From contig CM022676.1 in assembly GCA_012295275.1 (NCBI GenBank), positions 11,532,001 through 11,596,000 on the forward strand: a DNA stretch of 64,000 bases, read 5' to 3'. The translations under genes were made by a program, and so were the position numbers. The DNA comes from Chrysomallon squamiferum (lineage: Eukaryota; Animalia; Mollusca). The notes under the pieces are model-generated. The model had not been told where the DNA came from. It was given only the letters and a program-made list of their open reading frames with translations, and ran no database searches. The stretch's first letter is position 1. The number at the start of each line of letters is the position of its first letter. Shown in pieces: positions 5,825 to 37,472 of the stretch.

Positions 5825-7825
5825 ATGTGGCAGCCATATAAACTTAGGTTCATTTTATGTCTACAGCTAAGTCTAAGGTATGTGTTTTTGGTTATATGTA
5901 TAGCCTTTTCATTTCACGTGTACAAACTGACCAGTTAATGAACTTCCTCATTCAAATATATGTTCTGTGAAACGAAGAAGAAGAATAAAAAAAAAAAAAA
6001 TAAATAAATAAATAAATAAATAATAATAAATGGTGAAACATTTGGGCTTTTCAAGAAAACATGTTGGGGATCATTCATAATAACTGATATCAAGTTCTGC
6101 TGTGCTGCCTTGAATACTCGTCAGCAAGTTAACAAAGTCTTAATAATTAGTATGTATGTATATAGGTTATTTAAGTATATGTATGTATGTATAGATGTGT
6201 GTATGCACATATGTATGTATACGAATATGTATCTATTTGTACACACACACACACACACAAACCAAGCAGTAGTCAGATATATATAATATAAATGTATATA
6301 GTTGAGTGTAGAAAGACATATTACAACAACTACTGTTTATTTTATTCACAGTTTCCTTATAATATCAGCGGAGAGCATTAACAACACAGAAATCTGTGAC
6401 AACACTGACAATACTGAGAATACAAAGACCATTGAAAACAGAAATGTCACTGACAATACTGACAATAGAGAGAGCACTGAAAACAGGAATGTCACTGACA
6501 ATACTGGCAGAACACTAACAACACTGCCAAAACAACAGAGAGCATTGAAAACAGGAATGTCTCTGACAATTCTGACAATAGACAGAGTACTGATGTCATT
6601 GAAAATACAATTGATAATTGAAAACAGGAATGTCACTGACAATACTGACAATAGAGAGACACTAACAATACTGCCAGTACTGACAATAGAGATACCACTG
6701 AAAAAAATGTCATTGATCATTGAAAACAGGAAGAGCACTGACACTGACATTACTGACAATACACAGACCACTGAAAACATGGATGTCACTGACAATACAG
6801 ATACCACTGAAAACAGGAATGTCACTGACATTACTGACAATACAGACAATACCACAGACCACTGAAAACAGGAATAATGTCACTGACAGTACTAACAATA
6901 CTGACAGTACTGACAAACTGAGGATACAGAGACCACTGAAAAACGGGACAATGTCACTAATAATACTGACAATACAGAGACCACTGAAAACATGGATGTC
7001 ACTGACAATACTGACAACACAGATACCACTGACAAAACATTACTGACAATGACCACTGAAAACAGGAATATCAATGACAGATGACCACTGACAAACAGGA
7101 ATAACACTGACATTACTGACAATACAGATACCACTGAAAACAGGAATGTCACTGACAATAGAGAGAGCACTAACAATACTGACAATACTGAGAATACAAA
7201 GACCACTGAAAACATGGATATCACTGACAATAGAGAGAGCACTGAAAGCGTAGGTGTATGCAACTCACAACACTATTTAGGTAGGAAACCCAAAACAAAC
7301 AGATATTTCAATTTTCTTTAACGTTTGATTACACTGAATCACTTACCAGCCTTCACTATTCTGAAATGTGTCTAACCACCATAACTGAAATTTTGAAATC
7401 TCTAACTTCTCAAAATCACCATCACTATGAATACAATCACAAAAATCACTATCACAACCTGTTACTGCTGCTTTTATTACCAATTCTAGTTTCCTTTACT
7501 ATAACTACCACTATCATTAATAAAACTGTTATGATGTTGATTACTACCACTACTGTTATTACAGCTAATAATACTACTAGTATCAGCACTATTACTACTA
7601 CCGCTGCTACCTCTAATATTACTAGAACTACTAAAGCTACCAGCACCACTATTACTAGTACTATTACTACCACTATTATTTCTGCAGCTACAACTATGTC
7701 TACTACTATTACTGTTACTACCTCACATTGTATTGCTGTTGTACTACAACTACTACAATTACTTCTGTTACCTACAAAACAAAACAGTACTTCTACTTTT
7801 ACTGCATTAACGCCGGTACTATCAA

Positions 7826-7892: not shown

Positions 7893-10800
7893 AAACAGGA
7901 GATAAATTTTTCTACGAAGACGTTCAAGAGGACTGTCCATTTCTCAGAAAGACAAGTGTGGTCAGAGATATGCCAGTAAGATTTGTTTTCTTAAGACAAC
8001 AATTGTAATCAGAGATACGTTGTCTTCTAAATATTTTTCTTTCTCCGAATAAGTATAATAAGTAACACGACAGTTAGATTTGTCTGTATAAATATATATA
8101 TTTCTTAGAACTTCAAATACAGTCAGAGATATGACAGTAAGAGTTGTCTCTGTAGACATGATAATTTCTCAGGACAACAGTCAGAGATACAAAGTATTTG
8201 TCTCCCAGTGTTTGTTTGTCTTTTTCAGTTTAACTTTGTCTCCATTTTGTTCTAGTTACAAGTTAACATTTGTTCATCTACATCTTTCTGTGTTTATCCT
8301 TCTTCGTTTATCATTCTTTCTGTTTCTGTCTCTACTTTCCTCAATAGTTTTATATTTATATATTGGATATTTAAATAGTTTGTACTATTTGTACATGTAG
8401 ATAAGTGTTTGTATATGTAAACAGTTTGTTGTGTTTATATATGTAGATAGGTGTGTATATTTTAAATCTGCATTTATATATGTAGATATGTGTTTTATAT
8501 TTTTATATTTGCTAGGTAGTCAGTGATGGTTCAGAAGAGGACATGGCAGAGCTAAGTTTGCCGCCAGGTTTTGAGTTACGACATTTCGAAGAAACCTGGA
8601 ATATTGGAGTTTGGACAACACAGTTCTTTCCCAGTGGAACACGATTTGGTCCGCTCATTGGAGCTGTACGCATAGAGAAGATGAACGTTTTGGAAGACAG
8701 ATTCCAGGTGAAAGGAAATAGGGAACAGTGATCAAATGATATTTAAATAAGTAAACTAATTGTATACATGCTAACTGACACATATCGATTGTAAATTAGG
8801 AAATTAGATTTCTTACTACAAAACGTTTTGTATATATTACTTTTTTTTAAAAGATTGTTTGATTACCAAGCTGATATATATTTTTAAATCTTATTTTAAC
8901 TAGAAGCAAAACAACTAATTATAACAAAATATACAATAAAATGTTTCCGGTCAGGCAAAGATCTGAACTGGAAGATTATCAGTTAATAGTTACATTTTAA
9001 AACGTTTTGTTGAAAGTTACTTTAGTAATAGTTTCATAAAATTCAGGTCCGGTATTATGTGAATAATGAACCTAAATTTTTGTCAAACTGGTTGAGGTAC
9101 GTCATGTGGTCACCCGCTGTTGCTGATAGCAACCTCGTCAGACGTAGTGATGAGTCAAATATATATTACTACGCAGTGAGAGATATCCAGCCAGGAGAAC
9201 AACTGAAACTGTGGGCCGGATCACTCTTTGCCGAGAGTATAGGTCAGCCAGGATCTTGTAGAAATATTAAACATGACGGTAAGTACAAACAGCAAACAGT
9301 AATGACAACAACTGCTAATACTACTACTACTACTACTGCATCTATCATTACTACTACAAATACCTCTAGAGCATGTATTAGTATTGCTATGACTACTACT
9401 ATGACTAACATGAATGCTTCTAAGAGTTTTACTTCAACTAAGACTTCTAGTGTAACATTACATACACTACATTATTTCTTTTTATCTTTTAAATTGATTT
9501 CTTTTTTTTTTTTTTTTAAGAGTCGTGCTGGCCATTTTTTTATCACTGTGAAAAAGGATCATGTTTGATTGACAGCTGCTCACTGGAGGAGGGCGTGGTT
9601 TTAGAACATCTTGAAATGGAAGAAGAGATGAAAGTAAAGGAGGATGAGAAAGGTAAGTAATTGCTGTTAGTAAGTTAGTAATAATAACACTATTGTTAGT
9701 AAGTTAGTAATAATAACACTATTGTTAGTAAGTTTGTAATAATAACACTATTGTTAGTAAGTTAGTAATAATAACACTATTGTTAGTAAGTTAGCAAATA
9801 ACTTCTATTTTTCAAGATATCGATGCTTTGCGATTCTTGAGCACACCAGAACTCAAATTAACTGAGTGGTGACTCATAGATGAAATGTTTTCTTTCAGCA
9901 CACAGACAGACACACACACATACACAGAAACACCACACAATACACACACATACAACAGAGACAGCAACAACATACGAACACACACAGACACACAAACACA
10001 CACACAAAAATATACACATGCAAGTTTGAACTTGAAGAAACGTGTCGCTCATTATTACTTGCACACAGCAAGATTTGGGTGGAATGGGTAAACACAAAAC
10101 CACTCTGCTATCAAAATTATTTTGTTGCCATATTCATACATTTCATTTCAGCAACTGGCTACAGCTCATATCCTGACCTTTTTGAACCTTTATATGTTGT
10201 TAGAAACATTAAGGTAAATAAATAATTAAAATTGTTGTCTTCATGTTACAAGCAAAAATAGTGTGAGAAAATCAGAGACAGAGCATTTCTTAATTTTATT
10301 ATTGTTGTTTTTCAACATTTATTTGTTTATTTACATTTAGTCAGTGCTGTGTACGACATTACTTTTATACAGTGCTGTGTATGACTACGTTTACATAGTG
10401 CTGTGTATGAGATTACATATATACTGTGCTGTCTATGATATTACATTACACAGAGCTGTGTTTGAGATTACATTTATACAGTGCTGTGTATGTGATTACA
10501 TTTATACTGTGCTGTCTATGAGATTACATTTATACATTGCTGTGCATGACGTTACATTTATTTAGTACTGTGTATGACATTACATTTATACAATACTGTG
10601 TATGACATTACATTTATACAATACTGTGTATGACATTACATTTATACAGTACTGTGTATGACTACGTTTATACAGTACTGTGTATGACTACATTTATACA
10701 GTACTGTGTATGATATTATATTTATACAGTACTGTGTATGAGATTACATTTATACAGTACTGTGTATGACATTACATTTATACAGTACTGTGTATGAGAT

Positions 10801-12521
10801 TACATTTATACAGTACTGTGTATGAGATTACATTTATACAGTACTGTGTATGACATTACATTTATACAGTACTGTGTATAATATTATATTTATACAGCAG
10901 TGTTTTATGACAACATGTATATGATATTACAGTATACAGTGCTTTTGTACATTTGCTCTTTGTTACAAGAATGGTTTGTGATGATTTAATTATATGGATT
11001 ATGATGGAGATTTTTGTAAAAATGTGTTTATGACTGCAGCTACCAATGGATGGTTCTGTAAAAGACAGAGCAATGAGGACTGTGCCTCCGTACATCACAA
11101 TAAAACAATCTAACATAAAAGGAGCTGGTCTCGGTGCGTTTGCCGCACACGATATCCCCAGCAGAATGAGATTTGGTCCGTATGAAGGTCTTAAAATTGT
11201 CGACGTTATGAACAGTGGAGTAAAAAGTTATGCGTGGAGGGTTAGTAAACTGCTAAATAATAATAAACAGAAAAACAAGAACAACAAGAGTAAATAAATC
11301 AATAAATCAAACAGAAAATAAAACAAGGAGGAGAAGAAGAAGAGTGACAACAACTATAATAAGGATAATGACGATAATAACAAGAAAATTAACGAACATA
11401 ATTAGTAATATTGGAGAATACAGTAGACTGTAAGGCTTTAATTTGCAAAAAAAAAAATAAACTAAAAAAAAAGCAACACAAACAAATGAGAGTTCAACAT
11501 TTACAAATCTGTTTGTTGGAAAAGAAAACAATAGTTACGTAATAATACTGATGCATATTAGAGAACACCACAGCAAACAACAGTTGTACAATTAATTGAA
11601 TGTTTACTGTAACAAGAGTCAACCCTGTTATCTCGATTTACTTCTTTGTTTGCTTTTCAATGTAAATGTAAATTATGTTTTACTCGAATTTTAAGTGGCA
11701 AAAATGTTTTCATTTATTAATTCCACAGTGTACCTCGTTTTCCTACATCTGTCGTTTTTTAAGTGATTACTTTGTGTTATCCTGGAAATATTTACGTGTC
11801 CTAACAAGATAATGTACACATTAGATAAACCATCTGAACTTAGTTCAGGTTAACACTTTTAGTCATACAAGCACTGAAAAATAACGAAAACGATTTATTT
11901 CAAATAGTTACTTGGCTTATAATTTCTGTACATAATTACTTCATAAAGATGTTCGAACCCTGAATATATATATATATCGTTTATGACACATGGTTATTTT
12001 AATCACATATCCACTTAGAAATAATAATAATAAAAACAAAAAAAGTTTCTTTTAAATAGTTACTTCGTTTGTAATTACCTGTTGTCGTGGCTACATTTAC
12101 GTCATAGAGAGGTTTTTATGACGTACTTACAGGTCTATTATGAAGGAGACAAATTTTTCTATTGGGATTCTAAACGTGTATCGCTTTCAAACTGGATCCG
12201 TTACATCAACACAGCGAATTATTTCAAAGATCAAAACATGGACACCGTTCAAATCAGAGAGAACATATACTACTACTCGGTACGACCTATTCCGAAGGGA
12301 ACCGAACTGCTCACGTGGTATGGACATTCCTACGATGAAATTATCGGAATAACAACTCGACATAAGGATGATTGCTGGAACTATTTGCTGTTCGGTATCA
12401 TTTTTATATATACTTTAATAAATCAGCTTATTAATTACCATCTCTTTTTTGTTTTATTTTTCTTCTTTTTGTTTTTGTTTTAATCATTATCATCGTAATC
12501 ATACCACTACTACACCTACTA

Positions 12522-12553: not shown

Positions 12554-12667
12554 ACTATTATTCTTTTTTCTTTCTTTCTGTTTTTCTCAGAAACAGCTTG
12601 GCCGTTTTTCTTCATTTGTGCGAAAGGAAACTGTGCGAATCAGCTGACTTGTCCAATAGAGGAATAA
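5825..12667 (+). CDS. Gene A: putative secreted protein, acidic N/T/D/E repeat plus two PRDM9/7-like PR/SET domains; exon 2 frame-disrupted as assembled
   Basis: GT-AG exons 5825-5877, 6352-7280, 7899-7975, 8516-8707, 9047-9278, 9521-9652, 10152-10213, 11040-11240, 12133-12394, 12591-12667. N-terminus MWQPYKLRFILCLQLSLSFLIISA-ES is signal-like. Domain 1: AELSLPPG..GVW..RFGPLIG..SNWLRYV..IYYYAVRDIQPGEQLKLW. Domain 2: GAGLGAF..RFGPYEG..YAW..SNWIRYINTA..NIYYYSVRPIPKGTELLTWYG. Ends CAKGNCANQLTCPIEE* followed by AATAAA. Exon 2 has compensating frameshifts and an in-frame TGA at 6863-6865. Confidence 0.85.
6380..7245 (+). repeat. Coding low-complexity repeat of gene A exon 2 (TENRNVTDNTD-like units rich in N-x-T sequons)
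   Basis: Recurrent actgaaaacaggaatgtcactgacaatac units. Confidence 0.85.
9661..9795. repeat. 29-bp intronic minisatellite (about 4.5 copies in A; about 9 copies at 18161-18410 in B)
   Basis: Unit tattgttagtaagttagtaataataacac directly after the exon 6 donor. Confidence 0.88.
10340..10945. repeat. 28-bp intronic minisatellite (paralogous arrays at about 18980-19610 in B and about 27780-27965 in C)
   Basis: Unit acagtactgtgtatgagattacatttat, period 28. Confidence 0.88.
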
Positions 12668-14604: not shown

Positions 14605-15970
14605 ATGTGGCAGCCAGACAAACGTGTGTTTATTTTATTTCTGCAGCTAAGTACAAGGTACGTTCTTTTGTGCTGATTATTTTTATTCTTTAATAATCTT
14701 TAATTATTTATTCAAAACATTTATTCACGATTCGAATCAAAAACAATAGGAAATAAAATAAACAATTTCTTAACCACTTTCTTTACGTCTCGATAATACG
14801 TCACTGATAAAATTACTTTGGTTTGGACTGACTTCGTATTTTTTCATTTACATACATACATACATTGTCTTGGCCTAGTTTTGATTTCTAATATCTAAGA
14901 CTCAAAAACAAATTATCAGTGAACAAATAAATATAACTTAAAGTTTTGTTACATTGTTGGATTAATTTTTTAAAAATTTCTTAACGTCAACCAACTGAAC
15001 AATAAAAGAAAATTATTATTTCTATACATATTCTGTGAATATACAAAGACAACAACGTAAAGTATAATAAATAATGAACATTTATATATAGATGTGTGTT
15101 TGTTTATAGGGTCCTTATGATATCAGTGGAGAACACTGATAACGTTGACAACATGCAGAGCACTGACAACATTGATAACATCGACAACATGGTTAACACT
15201 GACATTGACAACATGGAGAGCACTGACAACATTGACAACATAGATATCGATCATTTATTTGACAACAAAGAAATTAATGAAATTATAAAGTACATGAAGA
15301 TCAATGAAATATTTGAGAACACGGATGTCAGTGAAAACACTGACAACACGGAGATTAATGAAAACACTGACAACACGGATATCAGTGAAAACACGGAGGT
15401 CAATGGAGATTCTGACAGCACGGATATCAGCAAGAACACTGACAGAACGGATATCAATGAAATCACTGACAACACGGATATCAGTGAAAACACTGACAAC
15501 ACGGAGATTAATGAAAATATTGTCAACATAGAGATTAATGAAAATATTGACAACATGGAGATTAATGAAAACACTGACAACACTGACAACATAGATATCA
15601 ATGATATCACCGACAACACGGAGATTAATGAAAATATTGTCAACATAGAGATTAATGAAAATATTGACAACATAGATATCAATGAAAACATTGACAACAT
15701 AGATATCAATGAAAACACGGATATCAATGATATCACTGACAACACGGATATCAATGATATCACTGACAACACGGAGATTAATGAAATCACTGACAACATG
15801 GAGATTAATGAAAACATTGACAACACTGATATCAGTGAAAACACTGACAACACGGAGACTAATGAAATCACTGAAAACACGGAGGTCAATGAAATCACTG
15901 ACGACGAATTTGAGATCATGTACTCACAGAATTATTTCGGTAAAAAGAAATTTAATTGTTTATTTATTTA

Positions 15971-16048
<78 letters not shown>

Positions 16049-16309
16049 CAGTCACTTTCCAGATTTCTCAAATGTTGCTAACTAAATTTATCTAAACTTA
16101 TATAATTTTATTTCACAAAGTTTGTTAATTTTCTGACTGTCTTAAACTTCTCAAAATTAGCACCTCACTACAACACAACCACCAACATCACTACTACTGC
16201 AACCACCACCACTACTGCTTCCGCTACAACAATGTTTCCTATTACTACTACTGCTACCACTACTGCTACTACTATTACGACGTCAACTATTAACGCAGGT
16301 ACTATCAAA

Positions 16310-16373
<64 letters not shown>

Positions 16374-19300
16374 AAACAGGAGATAAATTTTTCTACGAAG
16401 ACGTTCAAGAGGACTGTCCATTTCTCAGAAAGACAAGTGTGGTCAGAGATATGCCAGTAAAATTTGTTTTCTCAAGACAACAATTATAGTCAGAGATACG
16501 TTCTCATCTAAATATCTCTGTTTCTCAGTATAGTCAGAGATATATTGTCTGTCTGATTACTTCTCTCTATAGATCTACTATTTACATATATATTTACATA
16601 TTTTGTGTAGATAAAAAGTAATTGTTAATTGTTAAGTAAGTAGATAGGTGTAATATACAGTTCTTAACATTGTACATGTTGAAAGGTTTTTAATTGTAAT
16701 ATGTAAACAATTATATTTATGCATGTAAATACCTTTAAACGTATATACATCAGCAGAAGGGATTCATGTTTTTATGTGTAGATAGGTGTTTACATATGTA
16801 ATTTTAGTTTTTCTGTAGCTAAGTAGCTGTTATTATGTATATGTAATTGTTAGTTTTATGTATATAAATAATTGTTATTATCTATTTATGTAGATAGGCG
16901 TTTTTATTTCATAAATGTAAACAATGTAAATTTAAAATATGTGCATAAACAATTAATTAAAATATATAAACAGGCATTTATATTTGCTAGGTAGTCAGCG
17001 ATGGTTCAGAACACGACATGGCAGAGCTAAGTTTGCCGCCAGGTTTTGAGTTACGACATTTTGGAGAAAAGTGGAGTGTTGGAGTTTGGACAACACATTT
17101 CTTTCCCAGTGGAACACGATTTGGTCCGCTCATTGGAGCTGAACGCTTAGAGAAGATGAACGTTCGGGAAGACGAATTCGAGGTGAATGGAAATAGGGAA
17201 CAGTGATCAAATGATATTTAAATAAGTAAAATAATTATGTACATGCTAACTGACATATACTGACTGGAAATTAAGAAATTAGACGTCTTACTACAACAAG
17301 TTTTGTTTTATTATTTAAAAAAAAAAAAATGTTTAACAAGCTAATATAGACAATTATATATATATTTTATTTCAACTAGAAGCAAAACAATTGCTTATAG
17401 CAAAATATTCAATCAAACATTTTCTGTCAGGCAAAGATCTCAACTGCAAGGTTACAAGTTAATAATTAAATTTTAAAACATTTTGTTAAAAGTTATAACT
17501 TTAGTAATAGTTTCATAAAATTCAGTTCCGGCATCGTGTGAACAATGAACATAAATTTTTGTCAAACTGGTTGAGGTACGTCACGTGGTCACCCACAGTT
17601 GCTGATAGCAACCTGGTCAGACGGAGTGATGAGTCAAAGATATATTACTACGCAGTGAGAGATATCCAGCCAGGAGAACAACTGAAACTGTGGGCCGGAT
17701 CACTCTTTGCCGAGAGTATAGGTCAGCCAGGATCTTGTAGAAATATTAAACACGACGGTAAGTACAAACAGCAAACAGTAATGACAAATACTACTACTAC
17801 TACTACTCTTCATCTATCATTGCTACAACAAAAACCTTTAGTGCATCTAATAGTATTACTATGACAACTACTATGACTAACATGAATGCTTCTAAGAGTT
17901 TTACTTCAACTAAGACTTCTTCTGAAATATTACATACGCTATATTATTTCTTTTTATCTTTTAATTTGATTTATTTTTTGTTTTTTTATCTTATGTTTTT
18001 TTGTTTTTGTTTTTTTTAAGAATCCTGCTGGCCATTTTTTTATCACTGTGAAAAAGGATCATGTTTGATTGACAGCTGCTCACTGGAGGAGGGCGTGGTT
18101 TTAGAACATCTTGAAATGGAAGAAGAGATGAAAGTAAAGGAGGATGAGAAAGGTAAGTAATTGCTGTTAGTAAGTTAGTAATAATAACACTATTGTTAGT
18201 AAGTTTGTAATAATAACACTATTGTTAGTAAGTTTGTAATAATAACACTATTGTTAGTAAGCTAGTAATAATAACACTATTGTTAGTAAGTTAGTAATAA
18301 TAACACTATTGTTAGTAAGTTTGTAATAATACAACTTTTGTTAGTAAGCTAGTAATAATAACACTATTGTTAGTAAGTTAGTGATAATAACACTATTGTT
18401 AGTAAGTTAGCAAATAACTTCTATTTTTCAAGATATCGATGCTCTGCGATTCTTGAGCACACCAGAACTCAAATTATCTGAGTGGTGACTCATAGATGTA
18501 CTGTTTTCTTTCAGCACACACACACACACACACATACATACACAGAAACACCACACAATACACACAGACAACACACATACATACAACAGACACAGAAGCA
18601 CACAGCACACACGAACACGCACACACAACACACACAGACATAAACACACACATACAAATATACATATGCAAGTTTGAACTCGAACAAATGTGTCACTCAG
18701 TATTACTTGCACAAAACAATAGATTTTGGGTGGAATGTGTAAACATAAAACCACTCTGCTATGAAAATTATGTTGTTGCCATATTCATACATTTCATTTC
18801 AGCAACTGGCTACAGCTCATTTACAGACATTTTTGAACCTTTATATGTTGTCAGAAACATTAAGGTAAATAAATAATTAAAATTGTTGTCTTCATGTTAC
18901 AGGCAAAAATAGGCAGAGACAAAGCATTGTTTTATTTTATTATTGTTGTTTTTCAACATTTATTTGTTTATTTGTATTTATACATTACTATGTATGAGAT
19001 TATTACATTTATGGTCCTGTGTATGACATTACATTTATATAATGTTGTGTACGGCATTACATTTATACAGTACTGTGTACTAGATTATATTTATATTGTG
19101 CTGTTTGACATTACTTTTATACATTACTGCGTATGTGATTATATTTATGCAGTACTGTGTATGAGATTACATTTACACAGTACTTTGTATGACATTACAT
19201 TTATACAGTGCTGTATATGATATTACATTTATACAGTGCTGTGTATATAATTACATTTATACAGTGCTGTGTATATAATTACATTTATACAGTGCTGTTT

Positions 19301-21038
19301 ATATAATTACATTTACACAGTACTGTGTATATAATTACATTTATACAGTGCTGTGTATATGATTACATTTATACAGTACTGTATATGTGATTACATTTAT
19401 AAAGTACTGTGTATGTGATTACATTTATAAAGTACTGTGTATGTGATTACATTTATAAAGTACTGTGTATGTGATTACATTTATAAAGTACTGTGTATGT
19501 GATTACATTTATAAAGTACTGTGTATGTGATTACATTTATAAAGTACTGTGTATGTGATTACATTTGTACAGTGCTGTGTATGACATTACATTTTTACAG
19601 TATACAGTGCTTTTGTACATTTGCTCTTTGTTACAACAATGGTTTGTGATGTTTTATTTACATGGATGATGATGTAGGAAGTAGTAATAATTTGTACTTG
19701 TAAAGATAGAGAAGGTTGTATTAATTTAATTATATGGATTATGATGCAGATTTTTGTAAAAATGTGTTATGACTGCAGCTACCAATGGATGGTTCTGTAA
19801 AAGACAGAGCAATGAGGACTGTGCCTCCGTACATCACAATAAAACAATCTAACATAAAAGGAGCTGGTCTCGGTGCGTTTGCCGCACACGATATCCCCAG
19901 CAGAATGAGATTTGGTCCGTATGAAGGTCTTAAAATTGTCGACGTTGTCAACAGTGGAGAGAAAGGTTATGCGTGGAGGGTTAGTAGACAGCTAAATAAT
20001 AATAAACAGAAAAACAAGAACAACTAGAATAAATAAATAAATAAATAAATAAGAAGAAAAAGAAGAAGACTGACAACAAATATAATAAGGAAAATGATGA
20101 TATTAACAAGAAAATTAGCGAAAATAATTAGTAATATTGGAGAATATAGAAATATAGACTGAAAGATTTTTATTAGCAGAATAAATAAAGCACAAAAAAC
20201 AAAAAAACAAAATGAGAGCTCAACATTTACCAATCTGTTTGTTGGAAAAGAAAACAATAGTTTCGTAATAATACTGATGCATATTAGAGAACACCACAGC
20301 AAACAACAGTTGTACAGTTAATTGAATGTTTACTGTAACAAGAGTCAACCCTGTTACCTCGATTTACATAATTACGTCATAAAGATGTTCATACCCTGTA
20401 TGTTTGTCACCATGTTTGTCACCATGGCTATTTTAATCACACATCCACTTAGAAATAATAATAATAACAAATTTCTTTTAACTAGTTACTTCGCTTATAA
20501 TTTCTTGTTGTCATGGCTACATTTACGTCATAGAGAGGTTTTTATGACGTATTTACAGATCTATTATGAAGGAGAAAAATACTTCTATTGGGATGCTAAG
20601 GATTTACCTCATTCAAACTGGATTCGTTACATCAACACAGCGAATTATTTCAAAGATCAAAACATGGACACCGTTCAAATCAGAGAGAACATATACTACT
20701 ACTCGGTACGACCTATTCCGAAGGGAACCGAACTGCTCACGTGGTATGGACATTCCTACGATGAAGCCCTCGGAATAACGACTCGACATAAAGATGATTG
20801 CTGGAATGACTTGTTAATGGGTATCATTTTTATATATACTTTAATAAATCGACTTAGTAATTACCATCTCTTTTCTTTTTCTTCTTTTTTGTTTTAATCA
20901 TTATCATCATACTCATACAACTACTACTGCTGCTTAGTTCTAAGTTTTCTGTTTTTCTCAGAAACAACTTGGCCGTTTTTCTTCGTTTGTGCGAAAGGAA
21001 ACTGTGCGAATCAGCTGACTTGTCCAATAGAGGAATAA
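14605..21038 (+). CDS. Gene B: putative secreted acidic-repeat double PR/SET protein, intact, 705 aa by hand-splicing
   Basis: Exons 14605-14657, 15110-15939, 16380-16456, 16991-17182, 17526-17757, 18021-18152, 18803-18864, 19779-19979, 20559-20820, 20962-21038. All are GT-AG, phases are consistent and the frame is open throughout. N-terminus MWQPDKRVFILFLQLSTRVLMISVE, then about 270 aa of ENTDNTEIN-type repeats, then the same two PR/SET domains as A. Confidence 0.9.
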
Positions 21039-23692: not shown

Positions 23693-26600
23693 ATGTGGCA
23701 GCCAGATAAACTTTTGTTTATTTTGTTTCTACAGCTTAGTCTCAGGTATGTTTCTTTGCTATGACTTCTAGTTGTCCACCATTTTCGTCCTCTAATGATT
23801 CATTTCTTTTTATATTTATTCATTATCAAAATATTCATTCCCCATTGAAATCAAGAAGAACAGCAAATAAACAATTTCTTAACCACTGTCTTTATGTCGC
23901 CGCAAAACTATCAGACGAGTCTGACCATTGCTTGGAATAATCTCGAACATTCTTGATTTTGGTTTCCACTGAGAAATGGACTGTTCTCTTGAACGTCTTC
24001 GTAGAAAAAATTATCTCCTGTTTTATAATAATAATAACTGTAATAATAATAATAAGAAGAAGAATAACTGGTCATAATAATAATGATGAATAAATAAATA
24101 AATATGTAAATAAATAAATAAAGTTAATAAATAATTAAATGAATATTCGAAATAAGAGATATACTTTTCCCCTGCTGTCTGTATATAAACTATTATTCAT
24201 AGCTTACTTATAACATCAGTGGACGTCAGTGACAACACGGAGGTCACTGGAAATCGGAGGTTACTGAGGACAAGGAAGTCACTGAGAACAAAGGAGGTCA
24301 CTGAGAAATCGGAGGTCACTGAGAACAAGGAGGTCACTGACAACAAGGAGGTCACTGAGAACAAGGAGGTCAATGAGAACAAGGAGGTCACTGAGAACAA
24401 GGAGGTCACTGAGAACAAGGAGGTCACTGAAAACAAGGAGGTCACTGAGAACAAGGAAGTTACTGATGAACAGAGGTCACTGAGAACAAGGAGGTCACTG
24501 ACAACAAGGAGGTCACTCAGAACAAGGAAGTCACTGAGAACAAGGAGGTCACTGAGAACAAGGAGGTCAATGAGAACAAGGAGGTCACTGAGAACAAGGA
24601 GGTCACTGAGAACAAGGAGGTCACTGAGAACAAGGAGGTCACTGAGAACAAGGAGGTCAATGAGAACAAGGAGGTCACTGACAACAAGGAGGTCACTGAG
24701 GAATCTGAGATCGCTGAGAACAAGGAGGTCGCTGAGGACAAGGAGGTCACTGATGAATCTAACAACCTGAAGTCGATGTATTCAGGTAAGAAAAAAAAGT
24801 TTATTTTATTTCATTTTAATATATATATATAGAACTCTGAGTAGACTTCGCTATTGTTGTCTAACTAAAGTTGTCTGAAATTTTAAGATTTTGTTTAAGA
24901 AAGTTTCTGATTTTTGTGATTGTCTCAAGCTTTTCAAAATCAGCACATCACTACAACGCAACCACCACTACTTCAATCACCTAGTACTGCAGTTGCGTTT
25001 ACTACTACTGCTTTGTATTCTACTACAACAACTCCTACAACTGCAACCAGCACAACTATTATAACTGCAAATATGTCTAGGAACTACTACTGCTCCTATT
25101 ACTATTACTATTATCTCTATACTACTACTACTACTACTACTACTACTGCTATTATTATCTCTACTACTACTACTGTTACTGGCTTCACCAGATTAATTTA
25201 CTACAACTACCAATATCACTGCAGCTTCCCCTACTATTACTACTACTACCACCACCACCAATACCATTACTATTATTAGTACTAGTACTGCTGTTGTTAC
25301 TATGACTACAGGCACGTACGCATGGCCGGTTGCAAGAAGTGCCTATGTACCATTCACAAGCTGCAGGAATACATTGGTGGATCTGTAAAAAATTTAAAAT
25401 GATCCGACGAGCATCTCTAGTTCTTTATGCCGTCGATTACACACACATACACCGTCATTTCAGTTTCTGCGTTCTAGTCTAGACTATTTCTCCTACTACT
25501 GTTATTTCTATTTCTACCACTACATCTTCCACTGCTATTGCTACTGTTATTACTACATACCATTAACGCCACAGCGATCAATTTATTATTTTTATTTTTT
25601 CATGATTATAAAACAGCAGATAGATTTTTCTATGAAGAGGCTCAAGAGGACTGTCCATTTCTCAGAACAGCAAGTACAGTGAGAGATATGCCAGTAAGTT
25701 TGTGTAAATATGTCTAATTCTCAGAACGGCAAGTACAGTGACAGATATGCCAGTACGTTTGTGTAAATATGTCTAATTCTCAGAACGGTAAAATGTCTAA
25801 TTCTCAGAACGGAAAGTACAGTCAGAGATATGCCAGTACGTTTGTGTAAATATGTCTAATTCTCAGAACGGCAAGTACAGTGAGAGATATGCCAGTACGT
25901 TTGTGTAAATATGTCTAATTCTCAGAACGGAAAGTACAGTCAGAGATATGCCAGTACGTTTGTGTAAATATGTCTAATTCTCAGAACAGCAAGTACAGTG
26001 AGAGATACGCCAGTACGTTTGTGTAAATATGTCTAATTCTCAGAACGGAAAGTACAGTCAGAGATATGCCAGTACGTTTGTGTAAATATGTTTAATTCTC
26101 AGAACAGAAAGTACAGTGACAGATATGCCAGTACGTTTGTGTAAATATGTCTAGTTCTCAGAACAGCAAGTTTACTTATGTAAACAACTGTTTAAAATAT
26201 ATAAACAGGCATTTATATTTGCTAGGTAGTCAGTGATGGTTCAGAACACGACATGGCAGAGCTAAGTTTACCGCCAGGTTTTAAGTTACGACATTTTGGA
26301 GAAAAGTGGAGTGTTGGAGTTTGGACAACACAGTTCTTTCCCAGTGGAACACGATTTGGTCCGCTCATTGGAGCTGTACACACAGAGATGGTGAAGCTTC
26401 GGGAAGACGAATTCAAGGTGAACAAAAAAAAAAAATTAATGAATAGTGATAAAGTGATATTTATTTGTATAGTCCTAAGTGGAAATTAGATTTGTTATTA
26501 TTGAATTATTATTACTGTTGTTGTTGTTGTTGTGTTAAAAGTAAAGTTTTCATAAAATACAGGTCCGGCATCGCCTGACCAATGAACATAAATCTTTGTC

Positions 26601-26825
26601 AAACTGGTTGAGGTACGTCACGTGGTCACCCGCTGTTGCTGATAGCAACCTCGTCAGACGTAGTGATGAGTCAAAGATATATTACTACGCAGTGAGAGAT
26701 ATCCAGCCAGGAGAACAACTGAAACTGTGGACCGGATCACTCTACGCGGAGAGTATAGGTCAGCCAGGATCTTGTAGAAATATTAAACATGACGGTGAGT
26801 ACAAACAGCAAACAGTAACGACAAA

Positions 26826-26869
<44 letters not shown>

Positions 26870-28393
26870 TCATTGCTACTACAATTACATCTATTAGTAT
26901 CACTAACGTTACAATATGTCTAACACTACTACTCCCAGCACTACCACTACTATCACTTGAACTAAAACTTCTACTGAATTATTACTTACACTACAAACCT
27001 TTTTTATTTTTTTTTGAGAATCCTGCTGGCCATTTTTTTATCACTGTGAAAAAGGATCATGTTTGATTGACAGCTGCTCACTGTCAGAGGGCGTGGTTTT
27101 AAAACAGCTTGAAAAGGAAGAAGAGATGAAAGATGCGGAGGATGAGAAAGGTAAGTAATTACTGTTAGTAAGTTAGTAATATAAATAAGCTAGTAAGTTA
27201 GTCATATAAGTAAGCTAGAAAGTTAGTAATATAAGTAAGCTAGTAACTCACAGGTAAATATCTGCTATTAGTAAACAGCAAGCAAACAGCTGCCGCGAGT
27301 AGCACAGAACATAAGTTAGTAAGTTAGCAGATAACTTGTTAGTAAGTTAGCAGATAACTTGTTAGTAAGTTAACAGATAACTTGTTAGTAAGTTAGTGAA
27401 TAAGTGTTGTTTTACGTTGAAAATCTAGATTTATGTGTTATGAAGCACACCAAGAAGGGGATGATACCAGTGCAACAGACGTTCTGTGATTTTAACTGTC
27501 ACATGACGTCATCCAGCACACAGACAGACAGAGACACACACGCGTCACTCATTATTGCTTACAGCAGTACATTTTATTGTGTTGTTCGTATATTTGTACA
27601 TTTTATTTCAGCAACTGGCTATGGGGAATATATTCCGGTTTTCCAACCTTTATATGTTGTCAGAAATAGCAAGGTAAATAAATAAATGAAACTGTTGTCT
27701 TCATGTTACAAGGAAAAATAGTGTGAGAAAATCAGCTTTGTTTATTTTATTATTATTGTTTGTTTTTTCTCACATACTTTCTGTACCGAGTATAACATTA
27801 CACTTACACAGTACTGAGTTTGACATTTTATTCATAGAGTATATCTTTATATTTATATACACTGAATATAACATCACATTTACACAGTGCTGTGTTTAGC
27901 ATTATATTCATAGAGTACTGAGTATATGTTTATAGACACTGAATATAACATTACATTTGTACAGTTTTGAATATTTTTATATTTATGTAATAGTTTAAAT
28001 AATTAAGTATAATAATTAAATTATATGGATAATGATATAGAAAGTTGTCATAATTTATTTATGTGGATGATGATATAGAAAGCTGTAATCATTTATTTAT
28101 ATGAATAATGATATAGAAAGCTGTAATAATTTAATTATATGGATTATGATGCAGATTTTTGTAAAAATGTGTTTATGACTGCAGCTACCAATGGATGGTT
28201 CTGTAAAAGACAGAGCAATGAGGACTGTGCCTCCGTACATCACAATAAAACAATCTAACATAAAAGGAGCTGGTCTCGGTGCGTTTGCCGCACACGATAT
28301 CCCCAGCAGAATGAGATTTGGTCCGTATGAAGGTCTTAAAATTGTCGACGTTGTCGGCAGTGAAGGAAAAGGTTATGCATGGAGGGTTAGTAG

Positions 28394-28432
<39 letters not shown>

Positions 28433-29451
28433 TCAACAACAGCACTGAGGATAGTCATAATAACAAGAACATTAATCATATGCAGAGATATACTGTAAGG
28501 CTTTAATCAGCAATACTATTGATGTATCATATTACGTAATAATATTGATGCATGTTATATTAGTATTAGAAAATGCATAGTAAACAAACGTTGTATTATT
28601 AACTGAATGCTTACTGACAAGAACTCACTACCCTACTTTTGTTTTCTTTTCAGTACAAATGGATTTTATTTTAACTGGAAATAATTATAGGCTGGTCTAT
28701 CCTGTACTTGTACATATTAAATAAACCATATGAACTATGAAAAACCCGTTTAGCTCACATAGATAATTAACATTAATCGCAGAACCACTGAAAAAATAAA
28801 GAAAACTGTTTATTTTAAATAATTATTTGCCTTGTAATTTTCTGTCATGACAGTATAATGACGTCATATACATGTTACTAATGACGTATTTACAGATCTA
28901 TTACGAAGGAGACAAATACTTCTATTGGGACGCTAAGCATGTATCTCGTTCAAACTGGATTCGTTACATCAACACAGCGAATTATTTCAAAGATCAAAAT
29001 ATGGACACCATTCAAATCAGAAACAACATGTACTACTACTCGGTACGACCTATTCCGAAGGGAACCGAACTGCTCACGTGGTATGGACATGCCTACGATG
29101 AAATTCTCGGAATAACGACTCGACATAAAGATGATTGCTGGAATGATCTGTCGATGGGTATCATTCTTTTTTTTAATTAATTAATTAATTTGTTGTTTTT
29201 TTTCATTCTGTTTATATTTGCGTGTGCTGTGTGTGTGTTTAGTATATAGTACTTATCTGTCATTTTAAAATCATTTGTTTCTTCTTTTTCGTATTAATCA
29301 GCGTCATCATGATCATAATCATTATCATCATCATCATCATATTATTATTATTTTATTCTTTTTTTCTCTCTCAGAAACAGCTTGGCCGTTTTTCTTCGTT
29401 TGTCCGAAAGGAAACTGCGCTAACCAGCTGACCTGTCCATTAGAGGAATAA
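23693..29451 (+). CDS. Gene C: putative secreted EVTENK-repeat double PR/SET protein; net frameshift in repeat exon 2 as assembled
   Basis: Exons 23693-23745, 24203-24785, 25617-25693, 26226-26417, 26563-26794, 27019-27150, 27612-27673, 28185-28385, 28896-29157, 29375-29451. N-terminus MWQPDKLLFILFLQLSLSLLITS-VD. Exon 2 is an 18-bp repeat (gaggtcactgagaacaag); its 583-nt length is out of phase, with a slip near 24470. All other exons are intact. Confidence 0.85.
23969..24037 (-). pseudogene. Inverted copy of family exon 3, with its splice acceptor, inside intron 1 of gene C
   Basis: The reverse complement reads tattattataaaacag|gagataattttttctacgaagacgttcaagagaacagtccatttctcag, nearly identical to exon 3 of A/B/D (GDKFFYEDVQEDCPFL). 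Confidence 0.85.
25659..26171 (+). repeat. 59-bp tandem repeat (about 8.5 copies) built from the 3' end of gene C exon 3 plus its donor site
   Basis: Unit ttctcagaacggcaagtacagtgagagatatgcca|gtacgtttgtgtaaatatgtctaa. The first copy is the real exon end (cca|gtaag). Confidence 0.92.
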
Positions 29452-30239: not shown

Positions 30240-33200
30240 ATGTGGCAGCCAGACAAACGTGTGTTTATTTTATTTCTGCAGCTAAGTACAAGGTATGTTC
30301 TTTTGTGCTGATTATTTTTATTCTTTAATAATTTTTTATTATTTATTAAAAACATTTATTCACGATTCGAATCAAAAACAATAGGAAATAAACAATTTCT
30401 TAACCACCTTCTTTACGTCACGATAATTCGTCACTGATAAAATTACCCGCGAATTTGTTCATTGTTTTGGACCGACTTCGAATATTTTCATTTACATACA
30501 TTAGCATGGACCAAATACTTTTTTAAAAATAAAAATAGGAAACTCATTGTTTGCATACATAATAGTACATGATTTAGAAGTTGAATGCTTTTTGTTTTAA
30601 TGAAAAAGTGAAAAATTAATTTTTAACAAATGTTTTTAAAAGGCCGGCTGACGGACGTTTATTTATTTTATTTATTTATTTTTATTTTTTAATTTTTTTG
30701 GGGGGGAGGCATTTTCTTTTCTTTCTTTTTAATTTTTCTGTTGTAAAACTGCATCAAGCATTATAATGAATGTATCAAGGTAGCCATTCAAATAGCACGT
30801 GATCAGTTTGCTTTTTGCATGTAAATACGACATCTAACGCATTGAAAATGGAAATAAATATTATTTAAAAAAAAGAAGAATTATGATGGTTTCAAGTATC
30901 GTTTTACAACTACGTACTCAGAACTGTCTGCAATGGAGTTTTAGCAGAGTAACGCGCACACATGGTACCTAATGAGAATAGTCATCTTCATATTCACGCG
31001 CCAGTGTCTGTGAAAATTATTTATTTTATTTTATTTTATTATTATTATTATTATTTTTATTTATATTTTTTATATTTTTTATTTTTGTTCGGGTTGCGAC
31101 GTCATAATAATATCTGAAAAAAAAAATATATATTACGAAACGTGTTCGAGATGATATGACGTCAAAGTCACCAACAAAAAATAAAGGTTTCCTAACTACT
31201 TTTTCAACTTAATCAAACTTTTCAAACTGGATTATTTTTGTGCAAATGCGTGCATAATAAACTGAAATTATAATTCGGAATAAGATTAATGAATTAACTT
31301 TTGTCGTTGTCAATGTTCCTCTGTCAGAACCCAGCAGAAAAGAACACATGGATTGTTTGTACCTATTAAATCGACCAAATTTCTGGAGGCATTTTTTTCC
31401 GTAACGTAATTTGTGCCGTTGCGAGTTATCGTTCCTGTTGGTTCATCTACATACGTACATACATTCATACACTGTTTCGGTGTAGTTTTGATTTCTAATG
31501 CCTAAGACTGAAAAATTTTCTTAACGTTAACAAATTGAACAATTAAAGAAGATTATTATTTCTATACAAAGACAACAACGTAAAGTGTAATAAATAATGA
31601 ACATTTATATTTATGTGTGTGTGTTTGTGTACACAGACACATGTACATACAGTTATGAGTATTATTCATAGGGTCCTTGTGATATCAGAGGAGAGCCCTA
31701 ACAATGTGGAGAACATTGACAACATGGAGAGCTTTGACGACATAGATATCGATCATTTATTTGACGACAAAGAAATTAATGAAATTATTAAGTACATGAA
31801 GATCAATGAAATATTTGAGAACACGGATGTCAGTGAAAACACTGACAACACGGAGACTAATGAAAACATTGACAACACGGAGATTAATGTAAACATTCAG
31901 AACACGGAGACTAATGAAATCACCGACAACACGGATATCAGTGAAAACACTGACAACACGGAGATTAATGAAAACTCTGATAACACGGAGATTAATGAAA
32001 ACATTGACAACATAGATATCAATGAAATCACCGACAACACGGATATCAGTGAAAACACTGACAACACGGAGATTAATGAAAACACTGATAACACGGAGAT
32101 TAATGAAAACATTGACAACATAGATATCAATGAAATCACCGACAACACGGATATCAGTGAAAACACTGACAACACGGAGATTAATGAAAACACTGATAAC
32201 ACCAATGTCAATGACAACATGGATGTCAGTGAAAACACTGACAACACCAATGTCAATGACAATACGGATATCAATGAAAACTCTGACAACACGGATATCA
32301 GTGAAATCACTGACCACTCGGATTACAGAGACGAATTTGAGATCAAGTACTCACAAGATTATTTCGGTGAAAGATCAATGAAGATCAATGAAATATTTGA
32401 GAACACGGATGTAAGTGAAAACACTGAAAACACGGAGATTAATGAAAACACTGACAACACGGAGACTAATGAAAACTCTGACAACATGGAGATTAATGAA
32501 AACACCGACAACACGGATATCAGTGAAAACACTGACAACACGGAGGTCAAGGAAAACATTTACAACACGGAGGTAAATGAAAACTCTGACAACACGGAGA
32601 TCAATGGAGATTCTGACAGCACGGATATCAACAAGAACACTGACAGCACGGATATCAATGAAATCACCGACAACACGGAGATTAATGAAAACATTGACAA
32701 CACGGAGATTAATGGAAACATTGACAACACGGATATCAGTGAAAACACTGACAACATAGATATCAACGAAATCACCGACAACACGGATATCAGTGAAAAC
32801 ACGGAGGTTAATGAAAACATTGACAACATGGAGATTAATGAAAACATTGACAACACTGACAACATAGATATCAATGAAATCACCGACAACACAGATATCA
32901 TTGGCAACACGGAGGTTAATGAAAACATTGACAACATGGAGATTAATGAAAACATTGACAACACGGAGATTAATGAAAATACTGACAACACGGAGATCAA
33001 TGAAAATACTGACAACACGGAGATTAATGAAAATACTGACAACACGGAGATTAATGAAAATACTGACAACACGGAGATCAATGGAGATTCTGACAGCACG
33101 GATATCAACAACAACACTGACAACACAGATATCAATGAAATCACCGACAACACGGATATCAGTGACAACACGGAGACTAATGAAAACATTGACAACACAG

Positions 33201-33711
33201 AGACTAATGAAAACTCTGACAACATGGAGAGTACTAACAACATTGACAACATGGAGAGCTTTGACGACATAGATATCGATCATTTATTTGACAACAAAGA
33301 AATTAATGAAATTATTAAGTACATGAAGATCAATGAAATATTTGAGAACACGGATGTCAGTGAAAACACTGACAACACGGAGACTAATGAAAACATTGAC
33401 AACACGGAGATTAATGTAAACATTCAGAACACGGAGACTAATGAAATCACCGACAACACGGATATCAGTGAAATCACCGACAATACGGATATTAATGAAA
33501 ACATTGACTACACGGATATCAGTGAAAACATTGACATCACTGACAACACAGATATCAACGAAATCACCGAAAACACTGATATCAGTGAAATCACTGACAA
33601 CACTGACAACACTGAGGTCAATGAAATCACTGACGACGAATTTGAGATCATGTACTCACAGAACTATTTCGGTAAAAAGAAATTTAATTGTTTATTTATT
33701 TATTTATTTAT

Positions 33712-33782
<71 letters not shown>

Positions 33783-34040
33783 CAGTCACTTTCCAGATTT
33801 CTCAAATGTTGCTAATTAAATTTATCTAAACTTATATAATTTTATTTCACAAAGTTTGTTAATTTTCTGACTGTCTTAAACTTCTCAAAATTAGCACCTC
33901 ACTACAACACAACTACCAACATCACTACTACTGCAACCACCACTGCTACTGCTTCCGCTACAACAATTGTTCCTATTACTACTACTGCTACCACTACTGC
34001 TACTACTATTACGACGTCAACTATTAACGCAGGTACTATC

Positions 34041-34115
<75 letters not shown>

Positions 34116-36306
34116 AAACAGGAGATAAATTTTTCTACGAAGACGTTCAAGAGGACTGTCCATTTCTCAGAAAGACAAGTATGGTCAGAGATATGCCAGT
34201 AAGATTTGTTTTCTCAAGACAACAATTATAGTCAGAGATACGTTCTCATCTAAATATCTCTGTTTTTCAGTATAGTCAGAGATATATTGTCTGTCACGAT
34301 TACTTCTCTCTACTTTTAAGATATATATTTACATATTTTGTGTAGATAAAAAACAGTTGTTAATTGTTAAGTAAGTAGATAGATGTTTACATATGTAATG
34401 TTAGTTTTATGTATGTCAATAATTGTTATTGTATATATGTAGCTGTTAGTTTTATGTATGTCAATAATTGTTATTGTATATATGTAGATGTTAGTTTTAT
34501 GTATGTCAATAATTGTTATTGTATATATGTAGATGTTAGTTTTATGTATGTCAATAATTGTTATTGTATATATGTAGCTGTTAGTTTTATGTATGTAAAT
34601 AATTCTTTTTATGTATTTACGTAGATAGGTGTTTTTATTTATAAATGTAAACAATGTAAATTTAAAATATGTACATAAACAATTATTTAAAATATATAGA
34701 CAGGTGTTTATATTTGCTAGGTAGTCAGTGATGGTTCAGAACAGGACATGGCAGAGCTAAGTTTGCCGCCAGGTTTTGAGTTACGACATTTTGGAGAAAA
34801 GTGGAGTGTTGGAGTTTGGACAACACATTTTTTCCCAGTGGAACACGATTTGGTCCGCTCATTGGAGCTGAACGCTTAGAGAAGATGAAAGTTCGGGAAG
34901 ACGAATTCGAGGTGAAACAAACAAAAAAAACAAGATAAAAATAATAATGAATACTGATAAAATGATATTTAAGTAAATAAAAAGTAACTAATTATTACAC
35001 GCTGACACATAGTGAGTGTAAAATCAAGAAATTAAGTTTCTTGTCATTGTAATGTATTTATTTCAACTGTTTCAATAATAATAATAATAATAATAAGGTC
35101 AACAAAAACAACATCAATAGCAATAATATTTTACAGGGTTAAGTAGCCTTAGGCAATTTTCATGTTTTTTTTTTTCCTTGTATATATTAAAACTAGAAGC
35201 AACATGACTAATAATCAAAACATTGAAAATCTGAACATCAGGTTTTATTAAATTTCAAAAAGCTGTAGTAACATTCTCACCATATTCAGATCCGGCATCG
35301 TGTGAACAATGAACATAAATTTTTGTCAAACTGGTTGAGGTACGTCACGTGGTCACCCGCTGTTGCTGATAGCAACCTCGTCAGACGGAGTGATGAGTCA
35401 AAGATATATTACTACGCAGTAAGAGATATCCAGCCAGGAGAACAACTGAAACTGTGGGCCGGATCACTCTTTGCCGAGAGTATAGGTCAGCCAGGATCTT
35501 GTAGAAATATTAAACATGACCGTGAGTACAAACAGCAAACAGTAACGACAAATACTACTACTACTACTACTACTACTTCTACTACTACAACTATTGCTGC
35601 TGATGCTGCTAATGCTTCTACAGTTATTGCTACTTCATCTGTTGTTAGTACTACCATTACTATCATGATTAACTCTGCTGCTTTTAGTACTTTTGCTACT
35701 GTATCACTACTATTACTATACTAGTGAAATAGTAAGTCTACCACTACTGTTACTATACTAGTAAACCTACCACTACTATTACTATATTAGTAAACCTACC
35801 ACTACTATTACTATACTAGTAAGACTACCACTACTATTACTATACTAGTAAACCTACCACTACTATTACTTTACTAGTAAGACTACCACTACTATTACTT
35901 TACTAGTAAACCTTTCACTACTATTTCTATACTAGTAAACCTACCACTACTATTACAATACTATTTAGACTACCACTACTATTACTATACTAGTATGACT
36001 ACCACTACTATTACTATACTAATAAGACTACTCTACTATTACTATACTAGTATGACTACCACTACTATTACAATACTAATAAGACTACTCTACTATTACT
36101 ATACTAGTATGACTACCACTACTATTACTATACTAATAAGACTACTCTACTATTACTTGAATTAAGACTTTTACTGGAAGAATTATTAGCTGCACTACAT
36201 TTTTTATCGTTTTTGGTTTTTATTTATTTATTTATTTATTCATACATTCATTCGTTCATTTATTTTTATTTATTTATTTATATATATATTTACTTATTAT
36301 TATTAT

Positions 36307-36352
<46 letters not shown>

Positions 36353-36918: not shown

Positions 36919-37008
<90 letters not shown>

Positions 37009-37431: not shown

Positions 37432-37472
<41 letters not shown>

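Follow-up and report, generated by a model that had tools for sequence, protein, structure and literature searches.

A tandem gene array in the vent snail Chrysomallon squamiferum encodes likely secreted, finger-less PRDM9-like proteins with one degenerate and one intact PR domain

RESULTS

We analyzed a stretch of 64,000 nucleotides (nt) of the Chrysomallon squamiferum genome (GenBank assembly GCA_012295275.1, contig CM022676.1, positions 11,532,001 to 11,596,000 of the forward strand), here called the window, and found six tandem spliced genes, A to F, on its plus strand (5825-54064). Each of them codes for a likely secreted protein with two PRDM9-like PR domains; the first (domain 1) lacks part or most of the active-site tyrosines and the second (domain 2) keeps them, except for one substitution in F. 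The original prediction, made from the sequence of what proved to be exons 4 to 9 of gene A and their counterparts, had described a degenerate PR domain coupled to a catalytically intact one. This asymmetry is real, family-wide and older than the array, while the reading of E domain 1 as standing half-way between the two states did not survive.

Active-site residues are lost in domain 1 and kept in domain 2

PRDM9 positions were assigned by ungapped alignment around FGPYEG, NWxRY, IFY and WYG, together with a 43-row domain alignment. All four PR exons of gene A matched PF21549 (E values from 0.004 to 5e-21), in register with the PRDM9 chains. The assignment as a PR-type SET domain was confirmed by PF21549 matches on every PR exon tested and by two full domains in relatives from Gigantopelta aegis. 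The equivalences to PRDM9 Y276, Y341 and Y357 therefore hold by sequence alignment, and every motif that had been listed for the two domains is present in its place. In gene A, domain 1 shows FGPLIG (at 8645), RYVMWS (at 9095) and LWAG (in exon 5), and domain 2 shows GAGLG (at 11121), FGPYEG (at 11172), RYINTA (at 12199), and IYYY and WYG (in exon 9).

Domain 2 of A to E kept AGLG, Y276, G278, W293, N320, Y341, Y357 and Y361 (D and E being read with X at their frameshifts), and the Y357F change of F (WFG) was likewise borne out; F, too, has AGLG and N320. In A to D and F, domain 1 was degenerate as predicted. B to D and F carry FGPL[IF]G, RY[VI][MT]WS and LW[AT]G and lack the YSW segment. The five domains have leucine at 276, a deletion of six residues that removes W293, no AGLG, methionine or threonine at 320, tryptophan at 321, alanine or threonine at 357, and phenylalanine at 361 (tyrosine in C). 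Domain 1 of E reads FGPVDG, YSWK, RYVNPA and AWFG. The original prediction left out, however, that the Y341 equivalent is kept in domain 1 of all six genes. Overall, the full triad Y276/Y341/Y357 is found in domain 1 of none and in domain 2 of five of the six genes.

According to passages of PMC12122940, the PRDM9 lysine channel consists of W293, Y357 and Y361 with Y276 and Y341. The channel is complete in domain 2 of A to E, and domain 1 of A to D and F keeps only Y341 of it (plus Y361 in C). Since the channel is lost as well as the side that binds S-adenosylmethionine (SAM), this domain probably does not read lysine in the way of PRDM9.

The suggested comparison of AlphaFold models with PRDM9 was carried out on two G. 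aegis relatives. Both PR domains were folded, with a predicted local distance difference test score (pLDDT) mostly above 75 in these blocks, in models into which no SAM or peptide was placed. With the first model, Foldseek gave PRDM9 4c1q as the best match (E value 2.8e-16, root mean square deviation 1.9 Å, 149 columns). The tails and the linker remained below pLDDT 50.

The asymmetry is shared with Gigantopelta aegis

A profile of eight window exons, searched against 1.84 billion representatives, yielded 2915 matches at an E value of 0.001. Among the best 150 of the 2915, which were examined, the top relative was G. aegis LOC121386784. A Cys-rich tail is common to LOC121386784, LOC121385797, LOC121386925 and XP_041373100, all of them NCBI models annotated as uncharacterised (XP_041373100 is a single-domain or partial model), and all 12 PR domains of the window are followed by it. 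A tail profile built from the G. aegis proteins matched 6 of 267 fetched proteins, all from G. aegis.

The three two-domain G. aegis genes show the triad states YYF+YYY, LFI+YYY and MFP+YYY (the last model lacking the middle of domain 2), that is, a full triad in domain 1 of none and in domain 2 of all three. Taken together with the window, domain 1 is incomplete in nine of nine genes and domain 2 complete in eight of nine, counts that come from related genes and not from nine independent events. AGLG and N320 are likewise present in domain 2 of every window gene and of the two G. aegis models in which this domain is complete; in domain 1 they are altered. Because the three two-domain G. aegis genes show it too, the asymmetry is, judging from these residues, old and family-wide.

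In a wider census, 305 domains were aligned, 90 incomplete ones were dropped, and 173 of the remaining 215 carried the triad. The triad is thus the default of the subfamily, and its retention is no proof of activity. Other tandem-PR matches, from fish and butterfly, mostly kept both triads. The reverse asymmetry was seen in P0012/P0267 (Penaeus japonicus), P0005, P0006 and P0013, in which the first domain carries the triad and the second has cysteine at 276. Two further PR-domain proteins, P0105 (Lineus longissimus XP_064643457) and P0037 (Logan), have a signal-like start and an intact triad, lack the family tail and group apart from the family; a PLAT/LH2 fusion is present in one and Cys-rich ends in the other. 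Homologue searches with exon 9 alone (no relative among 8 candidates) and with the linker of P0008 (only P0008 itself among 6 candidates) were insensitive and set no bound on the range of the family. The ESM Atlas returned generic PRDM/SET clusters only.

Domain 1 was probably remodeled in the ancestor of A to D and F

In the 43-row tree, domain 1 of the window grouped with domain 1 of LOC121386784 (98/96), and the second domains of the two likewise fell together (99/95), so that the internal duplication is older than the split of the two lineages. The family clade is itself weakly supported (84/84), as is its position next to molluscan and cnidarian PRDM9-like rows. Over exon 5, E is identical to LOC121386784 domain 1 at 56 of 79 residues (71%), and A at 34 of 77. 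Given this identity and the shared WFG and RYVNP, domain 1 of E is, by sequence, the conserved ancestral form; its branch and that of G. aegis domain 1 are as short as those of domain 2. Its likeness to the G. aegis orthologue rules out a half-way stage of degeneration, as which E had been read. On the stem of A to D and F, the tree places 1.25 changes per column in domain 1 versus 0.31 in domain 2. We conclude from these branch lengths that domain 1 underwent a burst of change in the ancestor of these five genes.

Domain 1 also recalls PRDM1 and PRDM4 (PDB 3dal, 3db5), which are nuclear zinc-finger factors with one PR domain each: FGPLIG is the same letter for letter, and the RYVNP of E-type domain 1 is that of PRDM1. 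This likeness is convergent because domain 1 groups with the G. aegis orthologue and not with PRDM1/4-like rows; the same grouping rules out a PRDM1 domain fused to a PRDM9 domain.

Exon 5 had been described as almost invariant in the five degenerate paralogs. Indeed, 67 to 75 of 77 residues are identical over the 10 pairs, and the synonymous sites are also little diverged (proportion of synonymous differences [pS] only 0.06 to 0.13). Selection was estimated from minimal change counts among paralogues, so that all ratios of nonsynonymous to synonymous change (w) given here are rough values from converting copies, with one-sided P values uncorrected over seven tests. The proposed per-domain comparison indicated constraint on exon 5 from SNW on (8 synonymous versus 6 nonsynonymous changes; w ~0.23, P = 0.007), and the first half of domain 1, exon 4, gave no such signal (w 0.64, P = 0.2; D left out). 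The values were w 0.40 (P = 0.026) for the core of exon 9, 0.23 (P = 0.16) for the exon 6 tail and 0.20 (P = 0.04) for exon 10. These counts speak for constraint on domain 1 in its second half.

The first 50 codons of exon 8 (150 nt; 11040-11189 and the copies at 19779, 28185, 37214, 44955 and 52704) show no DNA difference among A, B, C, D and F and are nearly the same in E. The first 97 nt of E are those of A, even though pS between E and the other genes is 0.54 to 0.89 elsewhere (chance ~4e-9), and about 35 nt of the intron upstream of exon 8 are common to D and E. By this pattern, a gene conversion tract covers the SAM-side first half of domain 2. The identity of this half across the paralogs does not reflect six separate retentions, and protein-level selection is ruled out as its cause by the identity at the DNA level and the shared intron. 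AGLG and Y276 in the array therefore count once.

The proteins lack zinc fingers and are predicted to be exported

Each gene codes, in order, for a signal-like start, an acidic stretch, a knuckle remnant, PR domain 1, a Cys-rich tail, a spacer, PR domain 2 and a second Cys-rich tail, followed by the stop codon. No C2H2 zinc-finger array was found: each of the six genes ends with a stop codon after the Cys tail, and the relatives P0001, P0008 and P0018 have none. There was also no Pfam match to KRAB or SSXRD in the relatives P0001, P0008 and P0154, and the N-terminal exons of the window are signal-like and acidic. The pre-SET zinc knuckle CxxC-x7-CxxH is not kept in the window genes, which have one or no Cys and no His at this place; in two G. 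aegis paralogues three Cys are left and the His is missing.

Compared with PRDM9 and PRDM7 (PDB 4c1q, 4ijd, 6nm4), the family shares the PR/SET fold, as seen on the G. aegis orthologue, traces of the knuckle and, in domain 2, AGLG, FGPYEG, YxW, NWxRYxN, Y341, WYG and Y361. It differs in having two PR domains, a likely signal peptide and a new Cys-rich tail, in lacking KRAB, SSXRD and C2H2 fingers, in the loss of the knuckle His, and in changes at C321, R342 and D359/E360/E364. By these features, the PR domain is PRDM9-like, yet the proteins have neither the zinc fingers, nor the knuckle, nor the KRAB/SSXRD of PRDM members.

Secretion was judged from hydropathy alone, as a 9-residue Kyte-Doolittle peak of at least 2.3 within the first 25 residues. 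A hydrophobic N terminus was found in all five window genes with a known start (A, B, C, D and F) and in three of four G. aegis proteins scored (two being isoforms of one gene; the fourth reached 1.88). Among 162 other full-length matches it was found in five, two of which look secreted. The N terminus is hydrophobic without a basic cluster, which points away from a nuclear, chromatin-bound role. The mature parts of A, B, C and F contain ten Cys each, and neither a KDEL end nor an N-glycan site was found in them. We predict that the A to F proteins very probably use the secretory pathway.

Gene structure, reading frames and RNA support

Each gene has ten coding exons, with GT/AG ends and with phases matching across the genes (Table 1).

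Table 1. Features of the array in window coordinates
Feature	Position	Strand	Description
Gene A, upstream non-coding exon	~5125-5287		Seen in RNA contig
Gene A, exon 1	5825..5877	+	Start codon and first half of likely signal peptide
Gene A, exon 2	6352..7280	+	End of signal peptide and acidic T/D/N/E repeats; several frame breaks in assembly
Gene A, exon 3	7899..7975	+	PRDM7/9 pre-SET knuckle remnant, one Cys, no His; RNA joint 7975-8516, GT..AG (X1, X2)
Gene A, exon 4	8516..8707	+	PR domain 1, first half; Y276L, other residues in place of AGLG, YSW segment deleted
Gene A, exon 5	9047..9278	+	PR domain 1, second half; Y341 kept, N320M, Y357A and Y361F
Gene A, exon 6	9521..9652	+	Charged spacer after the Cys-rich, family-specific tail of domain 1; RNA contigs join 5-6 and 6-7-8
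Gene A, exon 7	10152..10213	+	Knuckle remnant ahead of domain 2, all Cys gone; RNA contig 5 has 62 nt between exons 6 and 8
Gene A, exon 8	11040..11240	+	First half of PR domain 2 (AGLG, Y276, W293); first 150 nt same in A, B, C, D, F
Gene A, exon 9	12133..12394	+	Second half of PR domain 2; N320, Y341, Y357, Y361 kept; C321 to T, R342 to Y
Gene A, exon 10	12591..12667	+	Domain 2 tail (Cys-rich) and stop codon; not followed by zinc fingers
Gene B	14605..21038	+	Same ten exons; open from ATG to stop
Gene C	23693..29451	+	Same layout; acidic exon frame-broken in assembly
Gene D	30240..38948	+	Same layout; frameshifts in exons 4 and 9 in assembly
Gene E	40987..46113	+	Divergent paralogue, nearest to G. 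aegis LOC121386784; candidate start exon; exon 8 frameshift; RNA contig joins 9-10
Gene F	47864..54064	+	Open frame; exon 2 very short; Y357F in domain 2

Of the six genes, just B and F run uninterrupted from ATG to stop in the assembly. The frames of A and C break in the acidic exon. In D, 1 nt is missing from exon 4 and 1 nt is inserted in exon 9; in E, exon 8 is short of 1 nt ahead of FGPYEG. For gene A, contigs are one base short relative to the assembly at 6609 (X1, X4) and at 6852 (X1); for D, contigs that possibly belong to paralogues differ from it at 34830 and 38437/38442. Assembly error is likely behind most of the frameshifts, not established for every one.

RNA contigs, which come from a single study and in part from paralogues and are evidence for splicing and not for level or tissue, join exons 3-4, 5-6-7 and 6-7-8-9, as well as exons 9-10 of E. 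Because exons 5-6-7 and 6-7-8-9 are joined, the tail of domain 1 and domain 2 lie on one transcript. The exon 1-2 joint was not found among the RNA joints listed.

The acidic exon 2 varies from 56 to 2000 nt (6352-7280, 15110-15939, 24203-24785, 31672-33671, 41283-41383 and 48164-48219 in A to F, respectively), and its D/E/N/T/I repeat units differ between A, B/D and C. Exon 2 of D is internally duplicated, and the duplication takes in a copy of the end of this exon. In C, the first intron holds an inverted copy of part of exon 3 and its upstream intron (about 23969-24093), and exon 3 is followed by a short tandem array that stems from its terminal part (about 25711-26140). Between E and F (46618-47300), one RNA contig (X1, depth 3.5) lacks 681 nt bounded by AT..AC, either a minor-class intron or a deletion allele.

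The array is flanked by a C2H2 zinc-finger gene on one side and an aspartyl-protease gene on the other. The former is one long minus-strand frame (199-3261) that codes for at least ~1020 amino acids and runs off toward the start of the window. The latter (~57900-63520, plus strand) has multiple exons and a C-terminal hydrophobic stretch, and its sequence reads as BACE-like.

DISCUSSION

We tentatively propose, at close to even confidence, that these finger-less, likely exported proteins combine a domain 2 acting as a SAM-dependent lysine methyltransferase on a non-histone secreted substrate with a non-catalytic domain 1 that serves as a structural or substrate-holding module. On this proposal, a PRDM7/9-type unit of knuckle and PR domain would have gained a signal peptide and a Cys-rich tail, lost its zinc fingers and the knuckle His, and then duplicated internally. 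Domain 1 would have fixed Y357F and C321P ahead of the split from G. aegis. After further duplication, the ancestor of A to D and F would have rapidly remodeled domain 1, losing AGLG, Y276, W293 and N320, and the remodeled domain would afterwards have been held under purifying selection. Domain 2 would methylate a lysine of a secreted protein in the lumen of the endoplasmic reticulum (ER) or Golgi or after release; domain 1 would hold the substrate or stabilize the chain, and the acidic N-terminal repeats may attract basic, Lys-rich substrates.

Several observations weigh against this proposal. To our knowledge, no SAM importer of the animal ER or Golgi has been described. The hydrophobic stretch of B and D contains an Arg, and four of the six genes are frameshifted in the assembly. 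The triad being a default, its retention may reflect fold or binding, and the first half of domain 2, homogenized by conversion, provides a single observation of conservation in the array. For domain 1, exon 4 is indistinguishable from neutral, and the core of exon 5 taken alone gives w 0.32 (P = 0.07). In the AlphaFold models, the poorly modeled tails and linker go along with predicted template modeling scores (pTM) of 0.52 and 0.44; as few family members entered the model alignments, low interdomain confidence says little. Furthermore, domain 2 carries threonine for C321 and tyrosine for R342, unlike the canonical PRDM7/9 rows aligned. It also lacks D359, E360 and E364 in all seven family domain 2 rows tabulated; passages of PMC12122940 describe these acidic residues as PRDM9 contacts to the H3 tail, with E364 important for H3K4. 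The substrate, if any, is therefore probably not H3. Finally, the Y357F of F is one of two changes in an inactive PRDM9 double mutant (PMC13748616, in part), so that F may be without any active domain. Y357 alone has been shown to matter in vivo, according to parts of a preprint (10.64898/2026.09.07.749791). As PRDM7 with S357 is weakly active in the portions of PMC4919437 and PMC5519329 that bear on it, loss of Y357 need not abolish activity, and E-type domain 1 may still act.

The alternative that fares best, which we nonetheless consider unlikely, is that both domains are non-catalytic in vivo and that the secreted PR fold is a binding module, with the aromatic channel of domain 2 binding lysine, methyl-lysine or a small amine and with no SAM at the site of action. 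It is in line with F, which lost Y357 in both domains yet is open and otherwise conserved, with the changes of C321 and R342 in all family domains, with the unexplained supply of SAM outside the cytosol, and with the small number of PRDMs that have a defined activity (PMC9861158). However, a pure peptide binder need not keep the SAM-side AGLG and N320 that are found in every window domain 2 and in both complete G. aegis models.

It is still less probable that domain 2 is an enzyme and domain 1 a passenger without functional pairing, decaying under relaxed selection and conserved in appearance because the copies are young and converting. The low pS of exon 5, the proven conversion in exon 8, the w of exon 4, the low pTM of the full-length models and the lineage-specific degeneration at the triad (L/Y/A-T, L/F/I, M/F/P) agree with such decay. 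Against it stand the 71% identity of E and G. aegis over exon 5 with branches as short as those of domain 2, the w of 0.23 for exon 5, and the retention of domain 1 in nine of nine two-domain genes. Least probable is that the signal peptide is unused or a modeling artefact, the proteins being intracellular PRDM-like methyltransferases or the array mostly pseudogenes: the absence of the exon 1-2 joint from the RNA joints listed, the four frameshifted genes and the candidate status of the first exon of E speak for it and are countered by independent NCBI models of G. aegis that also begin with a hydrophobic stretch, by the agreement of exon 1-3 phases across genes, by RNA and DNA contigs that contradict the assembly at several frameshifts, and by w below 1 in exons 5, 9 and 10.

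The proposed pairing of a non-catalytic domain 1 with a catalytic domain 2 has parallels in known systems. In JAK kinases, the inactive JH2 copy lies ahead of the active JH1 copy in one chain; the order is alike, and regulation of domain 2 by domain 1 would be a further, hypothetical likeness. The G. aegis relatives share the hydrophobic N terminus, the two PR domains, the Cys tail, the complete domain 2 triad and the incomplete domain 1 triad, and differ in that they have no long acidic repeats and that domain 1 of the orthologue keeps Y276 and W293. The diatom BacSET proteins are ER-targeted and are not known to be tandem. According to second-hand accounts of Nemoto et al. 2020, they form a lineage-specific expanded SET family tied to the building of an extracellular structure, and differ in being not PR-type and in coming from an unrelated lineage. 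METTL9 has a fold other than PR/SET. In the available part of a 2025 preprint (bioRxiv 10.64898/2025.12.23.696137), it is presented as the first secreted methyltransferase: a disulfide-linked enzyme acting on proteins, equipped with a signal peptide and routed through ER and Golgi. It differs in its single domain, in acting on histidine and not lysine, and in that its activity on plasma proteins was seen in vitro with added SAM (same part of the preprint).

No description of secreted or two-PR-domain PRDM-like proteins was found in the literature searched, which was mostly without subscription papers, and the accessible main text of a survey of 976 Prdm genes (PMC4760075) held no passage on 'PR domains'. 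Two peltospirid papers, whose supplements were covered in part, had no mention of PRDM or SET in the main text. A 'PRDM9-like' row in the peltospirid shell/sclerite proteomics supplement (PMC11871041) was rejected as evidence of secretion, as the table that holds it lists gene families that have expanded. The part of this supplement that was searched contained no accession of the family, where members under other names may be missed, and the searched part of the PMC7142155 supplements held nothing on the family.

That a degenerate and an intact domain are paired is the less notable aspect of the finding, since PR domains are commonly degenerate and other proteins with PR domains in tandem exist. 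PR/SET domains are known from the nucleus, and the likely secreted, finger-less PRDM9-type family, as read from its genes, is itself the more surprising point. The family also offers a natural series for pseudoenzyme formation, with domain 1 ranging from one lost tyrosine to all three. A likely secreted, tandem-expanded family in which one domain has retained a complete active site in both genomes makes lumenal or extracellular lysine methylation, and the source of SAM for it, testable in animals. It is possible, though we hold it as rather doubtful, that a PRDM9-type chromatin enzyme was rerouted to the secretory pathway of vent snails and expanded there as a pseudoenzyme-enzyme tandem methylating lysines of secreted proteins, a move that, to judge from signal-peptide PR proteins elsewhere, including a nemertean one, may have taken place more than once. 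If true, this would be an animal system of lumenal or extracellular lysine methylation and would imply a supply of SAM in that compartment.

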